DNA of 9,821 bases from a virus. Taxonomy: Duplodnaviria; Heunggongvirae; Uroviricota; Caudoviricetes. Every line of letters starts with the position of its first letter. Within the stretch, counting starts at the first letter, position 1. The position numbers and the translations under genes were made by a program. Location: IMG/VR virus record IMGVR_UViG_2703718828_000005; one strand, given 5' to 3'. The notes beneath the pieces were generated by a model. The model saw only the letters and a list, made by a program, of their open reading frames with translations, was not told the DNA's origin and made no database searches. Below, piece after piece: positions 1-9,821 of this stretch.

Positions 1-1053
1 TTACGGGGTAATGCCAACCGCTGCCGCCACTTTGTCGCCACTTGGCAGCGTTGCCAGAGGATTGAAACGGAGCGCCGTTTCCAGATGATCTGGTGCCAGA
101 TGTGCGTAACGCATAGTCATTTTTATATCGTGGTGTCCGAGAATTTTTTGTAAGGCCAGAATGTTTCCACCCGACATCATGAAGTGCGCCGCAAACGTAT
201 GGCGCAGAACGTGTGTGAGTTGACCGCGAGGGAGCACGATAGACGTTTTTTCCATCACGGATAAAAATTGAAAATAGCAGTCTGTGAAGAAATTGAACCC
301 ATCAAGCGCCATGATCTCTTCGTAAAGCTCTTTACTGATAGGGATACTTCTGTTTTTCTTCCCCTTCGTTCTTACAAAGGTAATTCGGTATTTGGTCACC
401 TGTGAACGAGTAAGATTTACGGCTTCTCGCCAGCGTGCGCCTGTGCTTAAGCATATCTTAACTACCAGTGCTAGAATTGGGTCCTGACGTTTGCAATCAG
501 CCAGTAATTCAACAATCTGCTCATGGGTAAGCCATGCCATCTCTTTTTCTGCGATGGTGAATTTTCGCATGTTCTCCAGTGGGTTCGGATACGACCATTC
601 GCCCAGACGGGATAGTTCGCTAAAAACACTACTTAGATAGCTTTGCTCCAGGTTAATGGTGACCGGGCTTGCTCCTTTCTTCCATTTCTCGCTGAAGTAG
701 ATCTCGCCTGTCAGGCGTTTATCTCGATAGTGGGCAAACATTTTAGAGGTGAGATCGGTTGCAAGAGGATTGCCCAGAGCGTCAACCATCAGCAGCAATT
801 TGTCATAGACATGCTGCCCAGCAGTCAGAGATTTACCATGTAGTTTGAACCATAGCTCAACCACGTCTTTCAGGGTTCGACGATCCACTGATTCGCCCAG
901 CCATGGCTTTGATTCGGTTTCTTCCATAGTGTGACGCTCAAAAGCCAGAGCTTCGCCTTTGGTGGCGAATTGTTTACGCACACGACGCCCACTTCGTCCG
1001 GCGGGGTAACATTCGCAAAGCCATTTCCCTGTGGTGAGTTTTCGTACTGCCAT
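1..1053 (-). CDS. int: Phage integrase, tyrosine recombinase family (P2/186-like)
   Basis: 350-aa product. C-terminal catalytic region reads LRHTFAAHF...GHHDIKMTMRYAHL (R, H-x-x-R, Y signature). Start chosen at ATG 1051-1053 (MAVRKLTTGKW...), preceded by GGAGGG 8 nt upstream. The ORF-track start at 1209 would run through the promoter and RBS. Confidence 0.9.
   Translation of the reverse strand: MAVRKLTTGKWLCECYPAGRSGRRVRKQFATKGEALAFERHTMEETESKPWLGESVDRRTLKDVVELWFKLHGKSLTAGQHVYDKLLLMVDALGNPLATDLTSKMFAHYRDKRLTGEIYFSEKWKKGASPVTINLEQSYLSSVFSELSRLGEWSYPNPLENMRKFTIAEKEMAWLTHEQIVELLADCKRQDPILALVVKICLSTGARWREAVNLTRSQVTKYRITFVRTKGKKNRSIPISKELYEEIMALDGFNFFTDCYFQFLSVMEKTSIVLPRGQLTHVLRHTFAAHFMMSGGNILALQKILGHHDIKMTMRYAHLAPDHLETALRFNPLATLPSGDKVAAAVGITP
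19..40. repeat. attL: Putative attL core (cGCTGCCGCCACTTTGTCGCCA)
   Basis: Matches 6967-6988 at 21 of 22 positions (single C/T difference). Lies at the 3' end of int, where attL is expected for a P2-like prophage. Confidence 0.7.
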
Positions 1054-1077
1054 AAAAAATGCCCTCCAGTAGAGAGC

Positions 1078-1106
1078 ATTTTTACTGTATGTATAACCAG
1101 TGTCAA
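1078..1106 (-). promoter_or_regulatory. Candidate sigma-70 promoter for int (-35 TTGACA at 1106-1101, -10 TAAAAA or AAAAAT around 1084-1078)
   Basis: Minus strand reads TTGACA-ctggttatacatacag-TAAAAAT, then GGAGGG and the int ATG about 25 nt downstream. Perfect -35, 4/6 -10, 16-17 nt spacer. Confidence 0.5.
1083..1102. promoter_or_regulatory. Candidate LexA (SOS) box TACTGTATGTATAACCAGTG
   Basis: 16 of 20 matches to the consensus TACTGTATATATATACAGTA. CTGT-N8-CCAG half-sites as in the uvrB operator. Occupies the spacer of the int promoter and overlaps its -35. Confidence 0.5.
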
Positions 1107-1241
1107 TGTATGAAATCCTACGACCATACATCTCACTGAAGCCATAATGAAGTTGGCTATTCTTTTTGCTATGTGAGCATGTAACTTTTGCGGTTAACCT
1201 GCGGCTCATTTTTATTTTAGACGCAGATATAAAAGCAAAAG

Positions 1242-1433
1242 TTATCGTGAGTTTTTAGTACAGATTTTTTTGGATTTACTAATAGTTCCATCATTGCAAA
1301 CGAATTTGCCATCTGAGGTACAGTGAGAAACACCTCCCTTTTTCCCTGAGCAGGGATAATTTCTAGCATAGGTAGTTAGTGGGTTTAATAACAAAGAACA
1401 TGACAAAACCACAAAAAATACCTTACCAAGCAT
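1242..1433 (-). CDS. Small secreted cysteine-containing basic peptide (hypothetical; candidate moron)
   Basis: 63 aa. N-terminal signal peptide [23 protein letters not shown] with predicted cleavage after TYA. Mature ~40 aa carries 4 Cys and is Lys-rich. Strong RBS GGGAGG 5 nt upstream of the ATG. Region is markedly AT-rich. Sits 15 bp downstream of cI on the same strand. Confidence 0.6.
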
Positions 1434-1448
1434 AGTTTCCTCCCGGTA

Positions 1449-2018
1449 CTATTTAACATACTTGACTGTTAAACTTATAATTTTACCAATTATTTCAATG
1501 TCTTCTATCTTACATTCGAAGGCTCTGTTTCCACCCTCGACGAAGATTCTTCCACCGGGTAAACGAGTAATGTCACGGATCGTTACTTCGCCATCAATAC
1601 TTATTACCCATTTACCATCACGTATATCATCAAATTCTTTATCACAAATAAATTCAGAATTGTTATCTGTGATGACAAAAGGTTTTTTAAACGTAGAGGG
1701 TAAAAATCCCTTATCAAAAATATAAAAACCGTCTTCACGCAAGGCACCATCAGATAATACATATTTAGCAACTTCCATAGTATTTGTATTACCTGAAGTT
1801 TGCTTTGAACCATGTCCGGTTGTGAGCCAATTAAGCGAGGTGCCCGTTTCAAGGGCGCACTGGATTACCCATTCTGCTGGGAATGAGTCACGCATGTAGC
1901 GTGTGGCGAGTGTACTTTTAGAGATTCCTAAATGATCGCACAACGCCTGTCGAGTTTTGAATCCATAAGCTTCTACCATGCGCTCTATAGCGCCTCGTCC
2001 GCCTTTCTCCAAATTCAT
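1449..2018 (-). CDS. cI: Phage 186-type CI immunity repressor
   Basis: 189 aa from ATG 2016-2018 (GGAG 5 nt upstream; the ORF-track GTG at 2024 overlaps the SD). N-terminal HTH region (GISKSTLATRYMRDSFPAEWVIQCALETGTSLNWLTTG). Length is close to 186 CI. No S24 peptidase signature seen in the C-terminal domain. Divergent from apl and cII. Confidence 0.8.
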   Translation of the reverse strand: MNLEKGGRGAIERMVEAYGFKTRQALCDHLGISKSTLATRYMRDSFPAEWVIQCALETGTSLNWLTTGHGSKQTSGNTNTMEVAKYVLSDGALREDGFYIFDKGFLPSTFKKPFVITDNNSEFICDKEFDDIRDGKWVISIDGEVTIRDITRLPGGRIFVEGGNRAFECKIEDIEIIGKIISLTVKYVK

Positions 2019-2042
2019 GGTCACTCCAAGTGAACTTTTATC

Positions 2043-2071
2043 TTGACGATTTCATTGTGCGATCGTATGTT
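2043..2071 (+). promoter_or_regulatory. Candidate early lytic promoter (pR-like): -35 TTGACG 2043-2048, 17-nt spacer, -10 TATGTT 2066-2071
   Basis: Read directly from the cI-apl intergenic region 2019-2143. Flanked by a GTGAAC (2030-2035) / GTTCAC (2078-2083) inverted pair that could be operator half-sites. Confidence 0.4.
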
Positions 2072-2143
2072 TATGGTGTTCACAAAATACAAACGATCCG
2101 TATTCGTCCTGATTAATCATCATTAAACGAGGAATGTTGCATC

Positions 2144-2365
2144 ATGAGACCTAACATTTCAATCACTCTTACCACGCCTCATGTGACTATTGAGCGCTAT
2201 AGCGAGCTGACAGGGCTGTCCATCGATACCATCAATGACATGTTGGCTGACGGACGCCTTATCCGTCACCGTTTGCGCAAAGATAAAAAACGCGAAAAAG
2301 TGATGATCAACATAGCAGCCATGACCGTTGATGCGCTTTCAGAATGCAATCTAAACCTTAATTAG
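2144..2365 (+). CDS. apl: Apl/Cox-family excisionase and transcriptional regulator
   Basis: 73 aa, basic. First gene of the rightward operon, divergent from cI, as for P2 cox and 186 apl. RBS GAGGAA 9 nt upstream. Confidence 0.75.
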
Positions 2366-2397
2366 TTCGATTCTGAAATACATCAGAGGCATTGACC

Positions 2398-2907
2398 ATG
2401 TTTGATTACCAAGTTTCCAAACATCCACATTTTGATGAAGCCTGTCGTGCATTTGCACTGCGCCACAATCTGGTGCAACTGGCAGAACGTGCAGGCATGA
2501 ATGTGCAGATTCTGCGGAACAAGCTGAACCCAGCTCAGCCTCATCTATTAACCGCACCAGAAATCTGGCTGCTTACCGATCTGACTGAAGATTCAACGCT
2601 GGTAGATGGTTTTCTGGCACAGATTCATTGTCTGCCATGTGTACCGATTAATGAGGTGGCAAAAGAGAAACTGCCACATTACGTCATGAGTGCAACCGCA
2701 GAGATCGGGCGTGTTGCTGCAGGTGCGGTATCTGGCGATGTAAAAACCAGTGCAGGTCGTCGTGATGCTATCAGCAGCATTAACTCTGTAACACGACTGA
2801 TGGCGTTGGCTGCTGTTTCATTGCAGGCCCGTTTACAGGCTAACCCTGCGATGGCGAGTGCAGTTGATACCGTGACCGGACTCGGTGCTTCATTCGGTTT
2901 GCTGTGA
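2398..2907 (+). CDS. cII: Phage 186-type CII transcriptional activator (lysogeny establishment)
   Basis: 169 aa from ATG 2398 (AGAGG 8 nt upstream), the same length as 186 CII. Immediately follows apl as in phage 186. Confidence 0.8.
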
Positions 2908-2914
2908 GGTGCTT

Positions 2915-3211
2915 ATGCTGACGAAAGAACCATCATTTGCATCGCTGCTGGTAAAGCAAAGCCCGGCAATGCACTACGGTCACGGCTGGATCATGGGTGA
3001 GGATGGAAAACGCTGGCATCCATGTCATTCACAAGATGAATTGCTGTCTGAATTGACCACGAGGAAACGGAGAAAGTCAAAATGTATGCAGCGGAAAGTG
3101 AAGTGGTTTATCAGTTTTGTTACAGAGGGGAGAGTTATTCAGTACCTGAAGATGATTTGCTCTGTTGTTATCCGTCGTTGTCGGGCGATGGCAGTTACTT
3201 TTTCACGCTAA
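2915..3211 (+). CDS. Hypothetical early protein (3' extent uncertain)
   Basis: ATG 2915 with GAGG 5 nt upstream, 8 nt after the cII stop. The 98-aa frame overlaps the next ORF by 130 nt. The N-terminal ~55 aa look protein-like; the C-terminal part may be a non-coding overlap. Confidence 0.4.
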   Translation: MLTKEPSFASLLVKQSPAMHYGHGWIMGEDGKRWHPCHSQDELLSELTTRKRRKSKCMQRKVKWFISFVTEGRVIQYLKMICSVVIRRCRAMAVTFSR

Positions 3212-3306
3212 AGGATGGGACGTTTTTACGGGGAGAGCAGGTTAAAGAGATGGTACGAAAAAATGTATCTCCCCTTGAGCGTTACCGTAAGAACAAAGAA
3301 CGATAG
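3082..3306 (+). CDS. Hypothetical early protein
   Basis: 74 aa (MYAAESEVVYQFCYRGESYSVPEDD...), balanced acidic composition. GGAG upstream. First ATG after in-frame stops in the -1 frame relative to the 2915 ORF. Confidence 0.5.
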   Translation: MYAAESEVVYQFCYRGESYSVPEDDLLCCYPSLSGDGSYFFTLKDGTFLRGEQVKEMVRKNVSPLERYRKNKER

Positions 3307-3328
3307 GTGCGTTTGGGGGATATGAAGT

Positions 3329-3670
3329 ATGGCAATTAATGGCGCTGCGGCGACTGTTCCATTAAGCCCCGGAGAACGCCTGAATGGACTTAATCACATT
3401 GCGGAATTAAGGGCGAAAGTATTTGGCCTGAATATTGAGTCAGAGCTTGAGCGGTTTATTAAAGATATGCGTGATCCACGGGATATCAATAACGAACAAA
3501 ATAAACGGGCACTGGCTGCCATATTCTTTATGGCAAAAATTCCAGCTGAACGTCATAGCATCAGCATTAATGAGCTGACCACTGACGAAAAGCGGGAGTT
3601 GATTAAAGCAATGAATCATTTTCGTGCAGTGGTGAGCTTATTTCCCAGACGGCTAACCATGCCGAATTAA
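3329..3670 (+). CDS. Hypothetical early protein
   Basis: 113 aa. GGGGGA 8 nt upstream of the ATG. Sits in the position of the small conserved early genes of P2/186-like phages. Confidence 0.6.
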   Translation: MAINGAAATVPLSPGERLNGLNHIAELRAKVFGLNIESELERFIKDMRDPRDINNEQNKRALAAIFFMAKIPAERHSISINELTTDEKRELIKAMNHFRAVVSLFPRRLTMPN

Positions 3671-3737
3671 CCAACCAATGAAATTAATGGCGTAAACCCG
3701 CCGGGCATCCCTTTATCTAAATTCAGGAGAATTGATT

Positions 3738-3971
3738 ATGCGTAATATTGAAACCCTCACGACCAAAACCGGACCGGATGATGCAGGTCTTAATCTTTTA
3801 CTGACAGAGGCTCGTCTGGAAGAACGCCGGGCAAGGGCTGAAGCAATGGCTGCTCGCCTCGATAGCCTGGCGTGTCATATCACCTCCCGCCAGCTAAACC
3901 ACGTCGAAGCGGCAGAACTGCTGCGTGTGACTGCTGAAGCAATCCAGAACGAAGCGCAGGAGATCCACTGA
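3738..3971 (+). CDS. Hypothetical early protein, predicted helical/coiled-coil
   Basis: 77 aa from ATG 3738 (AGGAGA 7 nt upstream). Stop TGA overlaps the next gene's ATG by 1 nt. Confidence 0.6.
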   Translation: MRNIETLTTKTGPDDAGLNLLLTEARLEERRARAEAMAARLDSLACHITSRQLNHVEAAELLRVTAEAIQNEAQEIH

Positions 3972-4198
3972 TGGCTGATGCAATGGATCTCGTACAGCAG
4001 CGCGTTGAAGAAGAACGCCAACGCCATATCCGTGCTGCCCGTGCCAAAACGCCGGGCGTGTCCCGCGTGCTTTGCGTTGAGTGTGAAGCGCCAATTCCGC
4101 CAGCACGCCGCCGTGCCATTCCTGGAGTGCAGCTTTGCATTACCTGCCAGGAAATCGCAGAGCTGAAAGGCAAACATTACAACGGAGGTGCTGTATGA
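3971..4198 (+). CDS. TraR/DksA-family C4 zinc-finger protein
   Basis: 75 aa with CxxC-x17-CxxC (CVEC...CITC). Same position as the TraR-like gene upstream of A in P2-like phages. Confidence 0.8.
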   Translation: MADAMDLVQQRVEEERQRHIRAARAKTPGVSRVLCVECEAPIPPARRRAIPGVQLCITCQEIAELKGKHYNGGAV

Positions 4199-5052
4199 GC
4201 ACCATCCTGAAATGGGCGGGTAATAAAACCGCCATTATGTCCGAACTGAAAAAATACCTTCCTGCTGGCCCGCGACTGGTTGAACCTTTCGCGGGTTCTT
4301 GTGCTGTGATGATGGCGACGGATTACCCCAGCTATCTGGTTGCGGATATTAATCCTGATTTAATCAACCTCTATAAAAAGATTGCCGCTGATTGCGAAGC
4401 GTTTATATCTCGTGCCAAAGTTTTATTTGAGGAAGCAAACAGTGAGCTGGCTTATTACAACATAAGACAGGAGTTTAATTACTCAACTGAAATTACTGAT
4501 TTCATGAAGGCGATATATTTCCTGTATCTCAATCGTCACGGTTACCGTGGTTTATGTCGCTATAACAAGAGCGGGTATTTCAACATTCCCTACGGTAATT
4601 ATAAAAATCCGTATTTCCCTGAAAAAGAAATTCGCGCATTTGCAGAGAAAGCCCAGCGGGCAACGTTTATCTGCGCGAGCTTTGATGAAACGCTGGCGAT
4701 GCTGCAGGTGGGGGATGTGGTGTATTGCGATCCGCCGTATGACGGTACGTTTTCCGGCTATCACACTGATGGTTTCACTGAAGATGACCAGTATCACCTG
4801 GCATCCATTCTTGAACATCGGTCATCAGAAGGACATCCGGTCATTGTTTCTAACAATGACACATCCCTGATTCGTTCGCTGTATCGCAATTTTACTCACC
4901 ACTATATCAAGGCAAAACGCAGCATCGGCGTGTCAGCTGGCGAGGGTAAATCTGCAACAGAAATCATTGCTGTTTCCGGGCCGAGCTGCTGGTTGGGATT
5001 TGATCCTTCGCGTGGCGTGGATAGTTCTGCCGTGTACGGAGTGTGTGTATGA
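4195..5052 (+). CDS. dam: DNA adenine methyltransferase, Dam family (GATC-type N6-adenine MTase)
   Basis: 285 aa from ATG 4195 (GGAGGTG upstream). LKWAGNK N-terminal motif, [15 protein letters not shown] and the catalytic DPPY motif. Clearly similar along its length to E. coli Dam. Start overlaps the upstream stop (ATGA). Confidence 0.9.
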
Positions 5053-6368
5053 GTCATGACGATATGAACAATTGCAGCGGCTTTAACGAGGCCGCCGCAG
5101 CATTTTCATGGAACGGCTCGAAAAAGGCCATTAACCCTTATCTGGACCCGGCGGAAGTTGCGCCGGAGTCTGCACTTTCAAACCTGATCACTCTGTACGC
5201 TGCCGATAACGAGCAGGAACAACTGCGCCGCGAGGCACTGAGTGAGCAGGTCTGGGAGCGTTATTTCTTTAATGAATCCCGTGATCCTGTCCAGCGCGAA
5301 ATGGAGCAGGATAAGCTCATTAGCCGGGCAAAGCTGGCGCATGAGCAGCAGCGTTTTAATCCGGACATGGTCATTCTGGCGGACGTAAACGCCCAGCCTT
5401 CCCATATCAGCAAGCCGCTGATGCAACGTATTGAATACTTCAGCAGCCTGGGCAGGCCAAAGGCTTATTCCCGCTATTTGCGTGAGACGATTAAGCCATG
5501 TCTGGAGCGACTGGATTGTGTACGTGACAGTCAGCTATCTGTTTCTTTCCGTTTTATGGCAAGCCATCAAGGGCTGGAGGGTCTGCTGATCCTGCCTGAA
5601 ATGAGCCAGGATCAGGTGAAACGCCTGTCCACCCTGGTAGCAGCGCATATGAGCATGTGTCTTGAGGACGCTTGTGGTGATTTGTATGCCACCGATGACG
5701 TTAAGCCAGAAGAAATCCGCAAGACATGGGAAAAGGTGGCAGCGGAAACCCTGCGTCTGGATGTAATCCCGCCTGCGTTTGAGAAACTTCGTCGGAAAAG
5801 AAACCGCCGCAAACCAGTGCCCTATGAACTCATCCCGGGTTCGCTGGCGCGTATGTTGTGTGCCGACTGGTGGTATCGGAAATTATGGAAGATGCGTTGC
5901 GAATGGCGGGAAGAGCAGTTGCGTGCTGTCTGCCTGGTCAGCAAAAAAGCATCCCCCTATGTCAGCTATGAAGCCGTGATGCATAAACGTGAGCAGCGCC
6001 GTAAGTCGCTGGAGTTTTTTCGTTCTCATGAACTGGTGAACGAAGACGGCGACACGCTGGATATGGAAGATGTGGTAAACGCCAGCAGCAGCAACCCGGC
6101 GCATCGCCGCAATGAGATGATGGCCTGTGTTAAAGGTCTGGAGCTTATCGCGGAAATGCGCAGTGACTGTGCCGTTTTCTACACTATCACCTGTCCGTCG
6201 CGTTTCCATTCCACGCTCAATAACGGCAGACCAAACCCGACCTGGACAAACGCGACGGTAAGACAAAGTAGCGATTATCTGGTCGGCATGTTTGCTGCAT
6301 TTCGTAAGGCTATGCATAAAGCCGAGTTGCGCTGGTATGGCGTGCGGGTACCTGGTGGGGACGGATGA
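5049..6368 (+). pseudogene. A: Replication initiation endonuclease (P2 gpA family), truncated at about codon 435
   Basis: N-terminal region includes ITCPSRFH and ends ...ELRWYGVRV, then runs into an unrelated PGGDG-stop tail. The HUH histidines and catalytic tyrosines that normally follow are absent. Start ATG 5049 overlaps the dam stop. Confidence 0.8.
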
Positions 6369-6657
6369 AAACGTGCTGGTACTTAATCGCACTTATGCCA
6401 ACCGGAGCAACGCCGAACGAGCGGCAAAAATGCAGTGGGAACGCCTGCAACGCGGTGTTGCGTCATTCTCGCTACAACTGGCGGAAGGGCGGGCAGATCT
6501 TTACACGGAAATGCCTGTAAAAGTCAGTGGTTTTAAACAGCCGATAGATGATGCGGAATGGACCATTACCACCCTGACGCATACTGTCAGCCCGGATAAC
6601 GGTTTTACGACCAGTCTGGAGCTTGAAGTGAGGATTGATGATTTCGAAATGGAATGA
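6351..6657 (+). pseudogene. D: C-terminal fragment of tail gene D (P2 gpD family)
   Basis: Frame +1 relative to A encodes ...LVLNRTYANRSNAERAAKMQWERLQRG...SGFKQPIDDAEWTITTLTHTVSPDNGFTTSLELEVRIDDFEME, recognised as a gpD C-terminus. No own RBS or 5' portion. Lies directly upstream of ogr as in P2. Confidence 0.7.
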
Positions 6658-6747
6658 TTCTTCGCAATGGAGAACTTTTAAGTTTGCAAAATGGAATAAT
6701 GCGGTATCATTGTTGTGAATTTAGCAAAAATGGGGAGAACTCGAAAA

Positions 6748-6966
6748 ATGATGATTTGCCCACTGTGTGGAAGTGCCGCCCATACTCGCAGCAGTTTTCA
6801 GGTATCTTCATTGACCAAAGAGCGTTACAACCAGTGCCAGAACATTAACTGCAGCCATACTTTTGTTACCCATGAAACTTTTGTTCGTTCGATTGCAACG
6901 CCAAAAGAGTCAAATCCGGTTCAGCCGCATCCAATGAAATCAGGGCAGGTGGCGCTCTCTCTTTGA
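6748..6966 (+). CDS. ogr: Ogr/B-family zinc-finger late-gene transcriptional activator
   Basis: 72 aa from ATG 6748 (MMICPLCGSAAHTRS...KERYNQCQNINCSHTF...). CxxC...CxxxxC finger and strong resemblance to P2 Ogr and 186 B. Last phage gene before attR. Confidence 0.85.
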   Translation: MMICPLCGSAAHTRSSFQVSSLTKERYNQCQNINCSHTFVTHETFVRSIATPKESNPVQPHPMKSGQVALSL

Positions 6967-6988
6967 CGCTGCCGCCATTTTGTCGCCA
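6967..6988. repeat. attR: Putative attR core (cGCTGCCGCCATTTTGTCGCCA)
   Basis: 21/22-bp direct repeat of 19-40. Starts 1 nt after the ogr stop codon. Confidence 0.7.
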
Positions 6989-7043
6989 TCGTTAAAAAAC
7001 AGTGCTTCTAACATCATGATTTTAAACAGCATAAATTTCAGGC

Positions 7044-7089
7044 AACAAAAAACCCATCAACCTTGAACCGAAATGGCGGGGTTGATGGG
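7044..7089 (-). terminator. Candidate intrinsic terminator downstream of ybjL
   Basis: Perfect 10-bp inverted repeat CCCATCAACC (7053-7062) / GGTTGATGGG (7080-7089) followed on the minus strand by TTTTTTGTT (7052-7044). The loop is long (17 nt, ~11 with G-U pairs). Confidence 0.35.
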
Positions 7090-7201
7090 CTCCACAAAAT
7101 GGGGACATCAAAGAAAAGCAGTGGCACTAATTAAGACTGATGCCCTGCGGAAAAGTTCTGCGGTTGTGCAAAAAAATTTCATTTTCAGGGCAACTTCAGT
7201 T

Positions 7202-8887
7202 TTATCCTAATCCTGGCCATACCATGACGATGATTGTCCCTGCCAGCGTCAGCAGGACGTTGGCGATTGCATAGGTGCCCGCATAGCCCAGCGCCGGGAT
7301 GTTACTGCGAGCTGTATCACTGATGATCTCCATTGCCGGCGCGCAGGTACGTGCGCCCATCATTGCGCCGAACAACAGCGCGCGGTTCATTCGCAATACA
7401 TAAGCACCGAACAAGAAACAGATAACCACGGGCACCAGACTGACAATCAATCCGGCAATCAACATCTGACCGCCAATCGCGCCCAGGCCGTTATTAATAC
7501 CGCTACCGGCGCTCAGACCAACGCCTGCCATAAACACCATCAAGCCGAACTCTTTCACCATGCTTAATGCACCCTGCGGAATGTAACCGAAGGTCGGGTG
7601 GTTAGCACGCATAAAGCCCAGCATAATTCCGGCGAATAACAACCCGGCAGCGTTCCCCATGCCGAAACTGAATGTGCTGAACTGGAAGGTGATCATCCCG
7701 ATCATCAGCCCAATAACAAAGAAGGCGCAGAATGCCAGCAGGTCAGTGACCTGGCTGTGAATCGAGATAAAGCCGATGCGATCGGCGATGGTTTTTACGC
7801 GGCGGGCATCGCCGCTGACTTGTAAAACGTCACCTTTGTTAAGCACGACGTTGTCATCTATCGGCATCTCAATCTGGCTACGAATGACGCGGTTAAGGAA
7901 GCAACCGTGATCGGTCAACTTCAGTTGTGCGAGACGTTTACCTACAGCGTTATGGTTTTTAACGACCACTTCTTCAGTGACGATACGCATGTCGAGAAGG
8001 TCACGATCGAAAACTTCTTTACCGTTACGGAAGCTGGGATCGAGTCGGGCATGGGCGTCGGGATAGCCTACCAACGCTATTTCATCGCCCATTTGTAGCA
8101 CGGCATCACCGTCTGGATTTGCCAGAATCCCGTTACGTCGAATACGTTCAATGTAGCAGCCGGTTTGTCGATAAATACCCAGTTCACGCAGATTTTTGCC
8201 GTCGGTCCAGGCCACCAGTTCCGGGCCGACGCGATAGGCGCGGATCACCGGTAAATAAACCTTACGGTTGGCATCAGTGTCCAGGCCACGTTCGCGGGCG
8301 ATTTGCTGGGCGCTGGTCTGTAAGTCCTGATGCTGCAATTTCGGCAAGTAACGCGCACCAACAATCAAACTCACCAGACCGATTAAATAGGTTAAGGCAT
8401 ACCCGAGGCTCAGATTATCCAGTGCCAGTGAGAGCTGCCTGCTTTCCATGCCGGAATGACGCAGTGTATCGCCAGCACCGACCAGAACCGGTGTCGACGT
8501 CATAGAGCCTGCTAACATACCGGCCGTCAGGCCAATATCCCAGCCAAACAGCTTACCTAACCCTAAGGCGATCACCAGCGCACTGCCAACCATCACCAGT
8601 GCTAACATTAGGTAATTTTTCCCATCGCGAAAAAAAATGGAAAAAAAGTTCGGTCCGGCTTCGACCCCGACGCAGAAAATAAACAGCATAAAGCCAAGAT
8701 TAAGCGCATCGGTGTTAATGCTGAAATGTTGTTGGCCTAATAACAGCGATACGACTAAAACGCCAATGGAATTACCCAGTTGGATCGAACCAAGTCGTAA
8801 CTTTCCGAGACATAGCCCAAGCGCGAGGACCACAAATAATAACAGAATGTAATTCCCATTTAACAATTCGGCGACGTTTATATTCAC
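7202..8887 (-). CDS. ybjL: YbjL-type putative transporter (AAE/YidE-YbjL family, two transmembrane domains flanking a cytoplasmic regulatory region)
   Basis: 561 aa. N-terminus [25 protein letters not shown]... recognised as E. coli YbjL. Conserved synteny with ybjM and grxA. Start appears to be GTG with a weak SD. Confidence 0.85.
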
Positions 8888-9156
8888 GGAGGCTAACTTC
8901 TTGTTTACTAGTAAGCTGTTGAAAGAAATGGTAATTTACGATAATGTTTTTTACCAGAATTCAGGGCGCAGATTCATTCAGCGCACCTAAACGATAGTAA
9001 AGTAACAATATATTTTACTAGTGTAATCACATTAGGTATCAACGGCTATATGAATTGCGTTGGCCTATATTAGCATGGAATGCGAAGCGGCTTTATCTTA
9101 CTGAACGCCACACTGGCGAAAAATGTGTTCGATAGACGCAGTGTCAGGAGGAACGA

Positions 9157-9534
9157 GTGAAACATAAACAACGTTGGGCGGGGGCAATCTGCTGTTTTGT
9201 CCTCTTCATTGTGGTGTGCCTTTTTCTGGCGACGCACATGAAAGGCGCTTTTCGGGCTGCCGGGCATCCTGAAATCGGCTTGCTATTTTTCATTCTTCCT
9301 GGAGCAGTCGCCAGCTTCTTTTCACAGCGTAGAGAAGTCCTGAAACCTCTGTTTGGCGCAATGCTGGCGGCACCCTGTTCGATGCTCATTATGCGGCTGT
9401 TTTTTTCACCGACGCGCTCATTCTGGCAAGAGCTGGCATGGTTACTAAGCGCGGTGTTCTGGTGTGCGCTGGGGGCACTGTGTTTCTTATTTATCAGTAG
9501 TTTGTTTAAACCACAGCACAGAAAAAATCAGTAA
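9157..9534 (+). CDS. ybjM: Inner membrane protein YbjM
   Basis: 125 aa, multiple hydrophobic segments. GTG start with AGGAGG 5 nt upstream. Position between ybjL and grxA as in E. coli. Confidence 0.8.
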   Translation: MKHKQRWAGAICCFVLFIVVCLFLATHMKGAFRAAGHPEIGLLFFILPGAVASFFSQRREVLKPLFGAMLAAPCSMLIMRLFFSPTRSFWQELAWLLSAVFWCALGALCFLFISSLFKPQHRKNQ

Positions 9535-9554
9535 AGCCCTCAACGCGAGGGCTT
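9534..9554 (-). terminator. Intrinsic terminator between convergent ybjM and grxA
   Basis: 8-bp stem AAGCCCTC / GAGGGCTT with 5-nt loop. On the minus strand it is followed by a U-tract (ACTGATTTTTT), placing it just downstream of the grxA stop. Confidence 0.55.
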
Positions 9555-9563
9555 GTCAGACGA

Positions 9564-9821
9564 TCAGGCGTCCAGATTTTCTTTCACCCATGCAGCAAAA
9601 TCGGTATAGCCGCCGATATGTTGCTGATCGACAAAAATCTGCGGCACGGTTTCTACGGGTTTACCTGCCTTTTGTTGTAGATCTTCTTTAGTGATCCCTT
9701 CCGCACGAATATCTACATACTGATACTGAAAATCATCGCGTTCATTGCTCAATTTCTCAGCCAGATCTTTTGCACGCACACAGTAAGGGCAACCCGAACG
9801 ACCAAAAATAACGGTTTGCAT
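9564..9821 (-). CDS. grxA: Glutaredoxin 1
   Basis: 85 aa with the CPYC active site. Sequence recognised as E. coli GrxA along its whole length. Start codon is at the window edge. Confidence 0.95.
   Translation of the reverse strand: MQTVIFGRSGCPYCVRAKDLAEKLSNERDDFQYQYVDIRAEGITKEDLQQKAGKPVETVPQIFVDQQHIGGYTDFAAWVKENLDA

Follow-up and report, generated by a model that had tools for sequence, protein, structure and literature searches.

A 9,821-nt stretch of viral DNA (IMG/VR record IMGVR_UViG_2703718828_000005; hereafter the window) carries a phage-derived element beside the host gene ybjL, and a direct repeat lies near both apparent ends of that element. Is this repeat the attachment core, and does it delimit the element, as the preliminary description proposed, or does it have another role within the phage DNA? 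We consider it very probable that the 21/22-bp repeat represents the P and P′ arm sites of the integrase (Int) in attP, with phage DNA on both sides of each copy, in what is now a prophage remnant.

A deletion remnant of a 186-type prophage

Apart from its leftmost ∼90 bp, a ∼7.13-kb 186-type prophage (P2 family, Peduoviridae) lies within the window. Its gene order, int-cI-apl-cII-fil...dam-A′-′D-ogr, is that of 186 and of the Escherichia coli HS prophage, and together with the Pfam assignments (Table 1) it supports the earlier view of a defective P2/186-family prophage of ∼7 kb beside ybjL, about one-fifth the size of a complete P2-like genome. Int is 54.5% identical to 186 Int and 38% to P2 Int, and 99–100% identical to many prophage integrases. 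Scanning IMG/VR with Int returned 80 loci, nearly all 99–100% identical and trimmed at the int stop; these were too alike for divergence analysis, and nine longer ones were informative.

Table 1. Annotated features of the window
Feature	Position	Strand	Details
int	1–1053	−	Intact 350-aa tyrosine integrase, 186 type; Pfam Int_N, Phage_integrase
Proposed P′ arm, box pair	19–40	+	TGCCGCCA at 22–29, TGTCGCCA at 33–40; overlaps int end (...GDKVAAA...)
Promoter-like site	1078–1106	−	TTGACA, 17 nt, AAAAAT; 25 bp upstream of int ATG
LexA-box-like CTG-N10-CAG	1083–1102	−	TACTGTATGTATAACCAGTG; occupies promoter spacer
63-aa ORF	1242–1433	−	AT-rich variable slot between cI and int
cI	1449–2018	−	186-type immunity repressor, 189 aa; Pfam Phage_CI_repr, Phage_CI_C
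First early gene, 73 aa	2144–2365	+	apl/cox position; assigned by position
cII	2398–2907	+	Pfam Phage_CP76
fil	2915–3211	+	Pfam Phage_186_Fil
DUF5347 gene	3329–3670	+	Pfam
DUF2732 gene	3738–3971	+	Pfam
TraR/DksA zinc finger gene	3971–4198	+	Pfam
Dam methylase gene	4195–5052	+	Pfam
A′, replication endonuclease, truncated	5049–6349	+	Pfam Phage_GPA 1–243 of 321; blastn
Deletion joint A′/′D	6345–6354		GCGGGTA/CCTGGTG; imperfect 6-bp microhomology
′D, final 309 nt of tail gene D	6350–6657	+	Pfam Phage_GPD 237–302 of 305
ogr/B	6748–6966	+	Late-gene activator, 72 aa, intact; Pfam Ogr_Delta
Proposed P arm, box pair	6967–6988	+	TGCCGCCA at 6970–6977, TGTCGCCA at 6981–6988; non-coding, just past ogr stop
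IHF-like site	7009–7021	−	AATCATGATGTTA; 1 mismatch to WATCAANNNNTTR; between P arm boxes and core
attR core	7031–7057	+	ATAAATTTCAGGCAACAAAAAACCCAT; 22/27 match to E. coli attB ATAAGTTTTAGATAACAAAAAACCCAT
ybjL intrinsic terminator	7047–7089	−	Stem CCCAUCAACC/GGUUGAUGGG, then UUUUUU

The variable slot between cI and int holds a 63-aa ORF that has no Pfam match, and in KP12 the same slot encodes a 558-aa ATPase. The 73-aa protein at the apl/cox position is presumed, from that position, to be the excisionase and switch regulator; it has no Pfam match and no evident similarity to 186 Apl. Its sequence is identical in REL606, and the same protein accession recurs in L9, TUM12357 and HS, while the ogr/B accession is common to L9, REL606, AH21, TUM12357 and HS.

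Virion and lysis genes, cos, tum and an intact A with ori are all missing, and the element is thus a defective remnant. A′ is cut off after ∼1303 of 2415 nt, beyond which the ORF is out of frame and ends at a stop at 6368; the lost part of A is where the 186 annotation, by analogy, would place ori. Relative to the HS prophage, which is intact, 24.2 kb is missing, from nt ∼1303 of A to nt 793 of D. The microhomology at the joint reads TAGCTG in A and TACCTG in D, pointing to an origin by at least one illegitimate deletion from mid-A to late D that took away ori, tum, cos and every virion and lysis gene. AH21 has an A′/′D joint that is 100% identical, but its cI–fil segment is replaced by ISKpn26, excluding AH21 as the source strain. 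An engineered or restriction-site origin of the joints, suggested by a GGTACC hexamer in both the window and L9, was dropped, the shared hexamer being probably a coincidence: in the window, the only joint for which this was checked (the L9 parental sequences are not recoverable), the hexamer arises where the parental sequences meet at the imperfect microhomology.

Of complete E. coli genomes, ∼20% have the rcdA–ybjL site occupied, strains B, C and HS among them. The HS prophage is functional and SOS- and tum-inducible (Phollow preprint), the E. coli B prophage at this site is defective and carries a retron, and NC-MV of NC101 has been reported between ybjL and rcdA. The HS and E. coli B prophages share attB, core, arm pairs, Ogr, Apl-position proteins and early-gene order with the window element. 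Unlike it, both have int and the P′ arm separated by a moron, and HS differs further in possessing tum, cos and the capsid, tail and lysis genes.

The repeat, the attachment core and the element borders

The preliminary description reported a 21/22-bp repeat at 20–40 and 6968–6988, with one extra matching base on the left, placed at the 3′ end of int and directly after ogr. Both the repeat and its placement were confirmed: 22-nt copies with one mismatch (21/22) occur at 19–40 (CGCTGCCGCCACTTTGTCGCCA) and 6967–6988 (CGCTGCCGCCATTTTGTCGCCA), the left within the final codons of int and the right starting 1 base past the ogr stop. Its interpretation fared differently. If the 21-mer were an att core duplicated at attL and attR, the element would extend from 20 to 6988; such a reading is favored by the strong non-randomness of the repeat and by its location near the ends expected from the int 3′ end and the position after ogr, yet we give it almost no credence. 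The empty site, a check named beforehand as refuting, does not contain the 21-mer: it was not found in the 7.8-kb rcdA–ybjL locus of K-12 BW25113, whose intergenic region has no match, and the best match (five mismatches) lies elsewhere. Both copies are instead present in unintegrated attP. Phage homology, moreover, continues 69 bp past 6988, stopping at 7057 in the comparison with KP12, and extends ∼90 bp left of position 1, placing attL outside the window, whereas host homology begins only at 7031, where the window match starts in all sampled genomes lacking the prophage. Related prophages and attP sequences, the second check named beforehand as refuting, also place their borders away from the 21-mer.

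What the K-12 empty site does contain is a 27-bp core-like sequence, ATAAGTTTTAGATAACAAAAAACCCAT, just past rcdA. The core starts 4 bp past the rcdA stop and ends 145 bp from the ybjL stop, replacing the earlier figure of ∼210 bp for the distance between the insertion and the 3′ end of ybjL. Within the attR core of the window lies a 14-bp identity block, AACAAAAAACCCAT (7044–7057), found once each in attB, attP, attL and attR with flanks swapped as recombination predicts, the left flank being of attB type at attL and of attP type at attR. Judging from these alignments, the crossover must fall within AACAAAAAACCCAT, and the element ends on the right at 7057.

The left junction can be read in relatives. 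In L9, AH21, TUM12357, REL606 and HS, attL runs from host DNA through AACAAAAAACCCAT directly into TTATGTAAAC and phage DNA, and in L9, AH21 and TUM12357 the rcdA and int stops are 104 bp apart. From four near-identical relatives, attL of the window element would lie ∼75–90 bp left of position 1 and its AACAAAAAACCCAT block at ∼75–88 bp, with the rcdA stop expected to be followed by ATAAGTTTTAGATAACAAAAAACCCAT and then, across the junction, TTATGTAAACGGG. A lysogen at a secondary site has its junction at the same point (CCAT/TTATG). In the HS study (Phollow preprint), the rebuilt attB starts 77 bp past ogr, and lysogenisation was carried out with the cured strain bearing this attB as the recipient. 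That start corresponds to window position 7044, the start of the core.

The att core coincides with the U-tract and the final 5 nt of the stem of the ybjL terminator, and integration therefore regenerates this terminator at attR. The ybjL hairpin, evaluated by folding as its loop is too large for the terminator scan, has a fold energy of −23.3 kcal/mol (z = −3.1). On the phage side, a separate hairpin and U-tract (−9 kcal/mol) terminate the int transcript.

The repeat copies as probable integrase arm sites

Each repeat copy consists of two TG(C/T)CGCCA boxes, 11 bp start to start, and variation between the copies is confined to positions outside these 8-mers. TGYCGCCA occurs five times in the window (0.78 expected; none of 200 shuffles gave five), and four of these occurrences make up the two in-phase pairs. 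In the contiguous attP of KP12, an oddly labelled "partial" record, and independently in that of a second IMG/VR contig, the two 21-mers are 183 bp apart with the core between them. vB_EcoM-813R9, considered as a free-phage attP, was rejected: it is a prophage record with rcdA/ybjJ flanks and contains attL only.

The window boxes (TGCCGCCACTT, TGTCGCCACTT, TGCCGCCATTT and TGTCGCCATCG) fit both the 186-type Int arm-site consensus tgccGCCActt (PMC3448106) and the YAYCGCCAYTY arm sites of the 186 GenBank record, three on the left and two on the right, which are labelled "predicted" there. The P′ pair of 186 (TCTACCGCCACTTTATCGCCA), ∼100 bp from its crossover, matches the window pair at 18 of 21 positions and keeps the 11-bp phasing. 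A pair of boxes 11 bp apart lies on each side of the core in the window, 186, GCS667 and RCIP0057, and in P2 with a motif of its own; GCS667 and RCIP0057 keep this architecture despite other cores. The N-terminus of the window Int (GKWLCECY) has the W11/E14/Y16 discriminators of 186, versus Y/D/R in P2.

Similarity arising by chance or from coding constraint, with no function, is conceivable for a left copy that lies within the int reading frame, but we regard it as extremely unlikely. Only ∼1.8 × 10⁻⁴ direct pairs with ≥21/22 matches (about 2 × 10⁻⁴) are expected in random 9.8-kb sequence, the right copy is non-coding, and the boxes are still kept in phages with only 54.5–57% Int identity and different cores. 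In HS and REL606, where a moron separates int from the P′ pair, the first 41–44 bp of the window, with the left copy in them, are retained as non-coding DNA, 96 bp from the core. Conservation of the left copy in the window is itself confounded by its overlap with int coding sequence, and the HS and REL606 cases relieve this.

The repeats could alternatively serve a phage protein other than Int as operators, for instance CI at flanking sites, an Apl-like excisionase or Ogr. Repressor and Cox/Apl types of the P2 family fall into the same two groups as Int (PMC3448106), so that covariation of motif and group alone cannot single out Int. We nevertheless consider operators very unlikely: the motif equals that of 186, yet the Apl-position protein does not evidently resemble 186 Apl; 186 has its annotated Apl and CI sites at other places, as features distinct from its arm-type sites; and the boxes occupy the canonical arm positions flanking the core, phased at 11 bp as they are in P2. 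A repeated motif of the P′ region, AAAACAAYAAGTTRG, was also sought by eye in pR–pL as a possible RDF site, with no clear match.

Taking the repeat copies as arm sites, a mechanism can be proposed. In lambda, Int uses its N-terminal domain to bind arm-type sites away from the core, with IHF bending the DNA and an RDF steering the reaction toward excision. Homology with 186 and P2 predicts that the boxes are bound by the N-terminal arm-binding domain of a heterobivalent Int whose core-binding and catalytic domains act at the core; IHF would probably bend the DNA between arm sites and core. The IHF-like site may parallel, in its position, the IHF footprint left of the 186 core; binding of the boxes by Int and of this site by IHF is predicted by analogy. 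Integration splits attP, sending the P arm (after ogr) to attR and the P′ arm (int 3′ end) to attL; the prophage sits between rcdA and ybjL, inserted where the U-tract and 3′ stem of the ybjL terminator lie.

In prophages of the P2/186 type, the direct repeat that stands out most near the ends would be the arm-site pair, not the core, and border calls made from it would be ∼70–110 bp off, predicting the wrong empty site and excision junction. This correction of the border assignment is the main value of the analysis. The real core is short, with 14 identical bp within 27. The element itself is nothing new in kind, an unexceptional remnant left by deletion in a 186/P2-type E. coli prophage that is well known, and rcdA–ybjL is an already described, common integration site.

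Possible residual activity and comparison with 186, P2 and lambda

The remnant retains int with its promoter-like site, both arm pairs, the attR core, the IHF-like site, the Apl-position gene, cI and ogr, and among relatives the joint is repeatedly eroded while the flanking genes are intact. Upstream of int, the CTG-N10-CAG motif is kept in four diverged versions of the region and in Yersinia phage vB_YenM_31.17, and the HS prophage has, at the SOS promoter of its tum gene, a sequence identical to the LexA-like box at 19 of 20 positions. The 20-nt LexA consensus, allowing ≤3 mismatches, gave no match, because the int-upstream box departs from it at four positions. We think it unlikely, if worth stating, that the remnant is still an SOS-responsive module for recombination and immunity, perhaps under selection rather than decaying; such a module might be capable of excision, or of action in trans on incoming relatives. 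The PCR across an excision junction after SOS induction that was proposed earlier would probably fail in that form, since tum, the SOS antirepressor gene, was part of the deleted segment.

Among known systems, 186 resembles the window element in the order of its attP (ogr(B)-P arm-core-P′ arm-int), in direct tandem ..CGCCA.. boxes 11 bp apart on both sides and in the cI/cII/fil switch genes. Its core, however, is 36 bp of the tRNA-Ile gene ileY, compared with a 14/27-bp core in the ybjL terminator here, and only 186 has a third, inverted left box and an orf69 between attP and int. The window element differs further in an RDF-position protein unrelated to Apl, in the variable slot separating cI from int and in the promoter-like site of its own at int.

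P2 likewise has a heterobivalent Int, two 8-bp boxes 11 bp apart flanking a ∼27-bp core, and intergenic integration with core identity that is partial at some attB sites; its attP also carries a ∼21-bp direct repeat, near-perfect and with one copy to each side of the core (GATGTGGACGCTATGTGGACA and GTGTGGACACTATGTGGACA). The box sequence is TGTGGACA in P2 versus TGYCGCCA in the window, and the P2 switch is of the C/Cox type, whereas that of the window element is of the CI/Apl/CII type. The arm sites of lambda (P1, P2, P′1–3) operate by the same general mechanism but are unrelated in sequence and differ in number and spacing.

Attachment core and element borders

The window carries a defective 186-type prophage of ~7 kb, in agreement with the preliminary description, and the direct repeat reported there is present exactly, with its two copies identical at 21/22 positions (chance expectation for such repeat pairs ~1.8e-4 in random sequence of the same length). 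The repeat is, however, neither the attachment core nor a delimiter of the element, as had been proposed.

We compared the whole window by megablast with 5,426 complete E. coli genomes. In the prophage-free genomes sampled, the match is confined to 7031–9821, and the empty site of K-12 BW25113 reads rcdA-stop(TAG)TAG-ATAAGTTTTAGATAACAAAAAACCCAT-caaccttgaacc.... This site had been predicted to hold one copy of the repeated 21-mer, which was not found in the 7.8-kb K-12 BW25113 locus; the best match there has 5 mismatches and lies away from the empty site. A near-identical remnant in strain L9 has the left junction ...GATAACAAAAAACCCAT|TTATGTAAACGGGTTAATG..., with the int stop (corresponding to window position 1) 104 bp past the rcdA stop, and the right junction of the window reads ...ATAAATTTCAGGCAACAAAAAACCCAT|CAACCTTGAACC.... 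Because host homology starts at 7031 and homology to Klebsiella phage KP12 stops exactly at 7057, and from these junction reads, we assign the att core to the 27-bp segment between the two positions. The borders therefore do not fall at 20 and 6988: attL lies beyond the window, ~75–88 bp left of position 1, and the element measures ~7,131 bp core to core. The core starts 4 bp past the rcdA stop and ends 145 bp from the ybjL stop, compared with the ~210 bp from the ybjL 3' end first estimated.

The core shares 22 of its 27 positions with E. coli attB, and crossover must occur inside a 14-bp identity block, AACAAAAAACCCAT. The left half of the core is of attB type at attL and of attP type at attR, as expected for a reciprocal exchange within this block. 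Three further sets of observations support these borders independently. In an IMG/VR secondary-site lysogen (L012), flanked by what we take to be a yifB-like gene, the junction falls at the identical CCAT|TTATG point. Two other IMG/VR loci (L067 and L068) have a variant rcdA 3' end joined at attL to a full 27-bp attP-type core (ATAAATTTCAGGCAACAAAAAACCCAT); some host lineage may have an attB that equals the phage core throughout, or, alternatively, exchange took place further left. In the E. coli HS study, in which a cured strain with a rebuilt attB was the recipient for lysogenisation by the HS phage, the homology arm used for rebuilding begins "77 bp downstream of ogr", at the position where the identity block starts (HS ogr end 43199, core start 43277).

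On the ybjL strand, a 10-bp stem (CCCAUCAACC/GGUUGAUGGG) is followed by UUUUUU (fold −23.3 kcal/mol, z = −3.1), and the identity block consists of this U-tract and the last 5 nt of the stem. The phage-side sequence forms a smaller hairpin (−9 kcal/mol) ahead of the same AUGGGUUUUUUGUU, a predicted end for the leftward int transcript. After integration, the ybjL terminator is thus restored at attR, and the predicted phage terminator stays at attL.

Features of the element, in window coordinates
Feature	Position	Strand	Remarks
int	1–1053	minus	
Left repeat copy (P' arm)	19–40		CGCTGCCGCCACTTTGTCGCCA; within final codons of int
Promoter-like site	1078–1106	minus	TTGACA, 17 nt, AAAAAT; 25 bp upstream of int ATG
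LexA-box-like sequence	1083–1102	minus	TACTGTATGTATAACCAGTG (CTG-N10-CAG); forms promoter spacer
63-aa ORF	1242–1433		cI–int slot
fil–DUF5347 segment	3047–3328		282 bp
74-aa ORF	3082–3306		unannotated
A'/'D joint	6345–6354		
ogr stop codon	6964–6966		
Right repeat copy (P arm)	6967–6988		CGCTGCCGCCATTTTGTCGCCA; starts 1 base past ogr stop codon
IHF-like site	7009–7021		1 mismatch; between P boxes and core
att core	7031–7057		27 bp
Identity block	7044–7057		14 bp
Terminator hairpin	7047–7089	ybjL strand	

The repeat as putative arm-type integrase sites

Two contiguous attP sequences, those of KP12 and of a 39.9-kb metagenomic viral contig (L078), contain both 21-mers, spaced 183 bp and flanking the core, in the order ogr stop, tCTGCCGCCAaTTTGTCGCCA, 42 bp, 27-bp core, 93 bp and GCTGCCGCCACTTTGTCGCCA, the last within the int 3' end. 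The repeat is therefore phage DNA that integration splits between attR and attL; being present twice in attP and absent from the empty site, it is not the core.

Each copy contains two 8-mers, TGCCGCCA and TGTCGCCA, spaced 11 bp start to start. Boxes of this form (TGYCGCCA) number 5 in the window versus 0.78 expected, a count reached in 0/200 shuffles, and none of the variation between copies (spacer C/T/A; G/T 2 nt upstream) touches the 8-mers. The boxes of this element (TGCCGCCACTT, TGTCGCCACTT, TGCCGCCATTT and TGTCGCCATCG) match the arm sites annotated in the 186 GenBank record (YAYCGCCAYTY). The arm consensus is tgTGGaCa in P2-type and tgccGCCActt in 186-type phages, the boxes here agreeing with the latter, with W/E/Y (186-type) versus Y/D/R (P2-type) residues proposed as discriminators of arm recognition (Nilsson et al., PMC3448106). 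The W/E/Y residues are present in the N-terminus of the window Int (GKWLCECY), which shares 54.5% identity with the Int of 186 and 38% with that of P2.

In the related prophages of REL606 (E. coli B) and HS, a moron ORF separates the P' pair from int, and the Int C-terminus differs. The first 41–44 bp of the window, ending just past the box pair, are kept there as non-coding DNA 96 bp from the core, a constraint on DNA and not on protein. From consensus, architecture, attP layout and this retention, the reading of the 21-mers as P and P' arm-type sites is well supported, with binding putative for this Int.

The two moron ORFs differ, and each fits precisely between the P' pair and the 3' end of int (2692–3024 in the REL606 locus L005; 11947–12216 in the HS locus L096), leaving the arm pair undisturbed. 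Int has 338 aa in REL606 versus 350 aa in the window, where its 12-residue tail, GDKVAAAVGITP, looks like a by-product of read-through across the arm sites.

For the IHF-like site beside the core, we only infer a role of IHF from the sequence match. On the P' side of the KP12 attP (L003 3720–3765, outside the window), two copies of AAAACAAYAAGTTRG lie 19 bp apart between core and P' pair, each 1 mismatch from the IHF consensus; a GGTGGT..GGTGGT repeat comes after the two. IHF and/or excisionase may bind at these sequences; in 186, Apl sites occupy that position.

The CTG-N10-CAG in the int promoter spacer is kept in four diverged upstream versions in IMG/VR relatives and in Yersinia phage vB_YenM_31.17 (TACTGTTTTTATATACAGTA), and the window box is 19/20 identical to a sequence found at the SOS promoter of tum in the HS prophage. 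Phages in which int abuts cI (186, GCS667 and Cartapus) are without the box, a pattern that suggests SOS control of int in phages with a moron between cI and int.

Gene content and decay of the remnant

Pfam matches comprise Int_N and Phage_integrase; Phage_CI_repr and Phage_CI_C; CII (CP76); 186 Fil; DUF5347; DUF2732; TraR/DksA; Dam; GPA (profile positions 1–243 of 321); GPD (positions 237–302 of 305); and Ogr_Delta. An intact relative of 31,464 bp occupies the same site in E. coli HS and shares its Ogr and Apl-position proteins with the window; its induction requires LexA cleavage and tum. Alignment of the window with HS ends at HS 18351 in replication gene A and restarts at 42582 in tail gene D, with ~24.2 kb absent: the 3' 46% of A, tum, a DinI-like gene, morons, portal and terminase genes, capsid, lysis and tail genes. 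By analogy with 186, the lost part of A is expected to hold ori, and cos was presumably lost with the portal and terminase genes. The joint, GCGGGTA|CCTGGTG, lies in imperfect 6-bp microhomology (TAGCTG in A, TACCTG in D), typical of illegitimate deletion. With int, cI, ogr and the Apl-position gene apparently intact, the remnant could conceivably excise; it could not replicate, be packaged or undergo Tum-mediated SOS induction.

Three types of joint between the truncated genes (A' and 'D) occur among the few ~7-kb remnants, including those at L002 10260 and L094 ~7780: A' ~1303 nt/'D 309 nt in the window and AH21, 1212/757 in L9 and EC-07, and 1181/326 in TUM12357. The TUM12357 joint could have arisen from the L9 type via a second deletion across the joint; derivation of the window joint from either is excluded. 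The differing joints therefore imply that the pseudogene joint was eroded repeatedly or that deletions arose independently, with flanking genes intact. AH21, whose joint is identical to that of the window, carries the IS5-family ISKpn26 in place of cI–apl–cII–fil (L093 3686–4818) and is a further decay step of the same remnant.

The REL606 relative at the same att site has a retron (St85-family reverse transcriptase plus effector; L005 11893–13941) in the slot after A/tum. In KP12 and vB_EcoM-813R9, the cI–int slot holds a 558-aa 'chromosome segregation ATPase', where the window has only the 63-aa ORF. The two slots have the appearance of hot spots for morons or defence genes. The fil–DUF5347 segment, replaced by ~32 bp in KP12, REL606 and HS, is a small mosaic difference that provides a longer Fil C-terminus and the 74-aa ORF, for which there was no Pfam match.

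Prevalence and comparison with known phages

The 261-bp attR junction (ogr end, P arm, core and host flank) was found at ≥80% coverage in 1,105/5,426 complete genomes, including E. coli B/BL21, C, ATCC 8739 and HS, and ≥80% of the whole window, corresponding to a ~7-kb remnant, in only 7 genomes of the same set. The E. coli B copy is a defective 24-kb form carrying the retron. Prophages between rcdA and ybjL have already been described in the literature, and the element is nothing new in kind.

The 186 P' pair, TCTACCGCCACTTTATCGCCA, is identical to that of the window at 18/21 positions and shares its 11-bp phasing and its orientation; the distance to the crossover is ~100 bp in 186 versus 96 bp here. 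The 186 attP record also annotates a "predicted terminator of lysogenic operon", paralleling the phage-side hairpin. In Yersinia phage GCS667 (57% Int identity) and Klebsiella phage RCIP0057 (55%), whose cores are different, the core is flanked on each side by the same tandem boxes. P2 shares the identical arm architecture but uses the box TGTGGACA, and a ~21-bp direct repeat is likewise visible on either side of its core.
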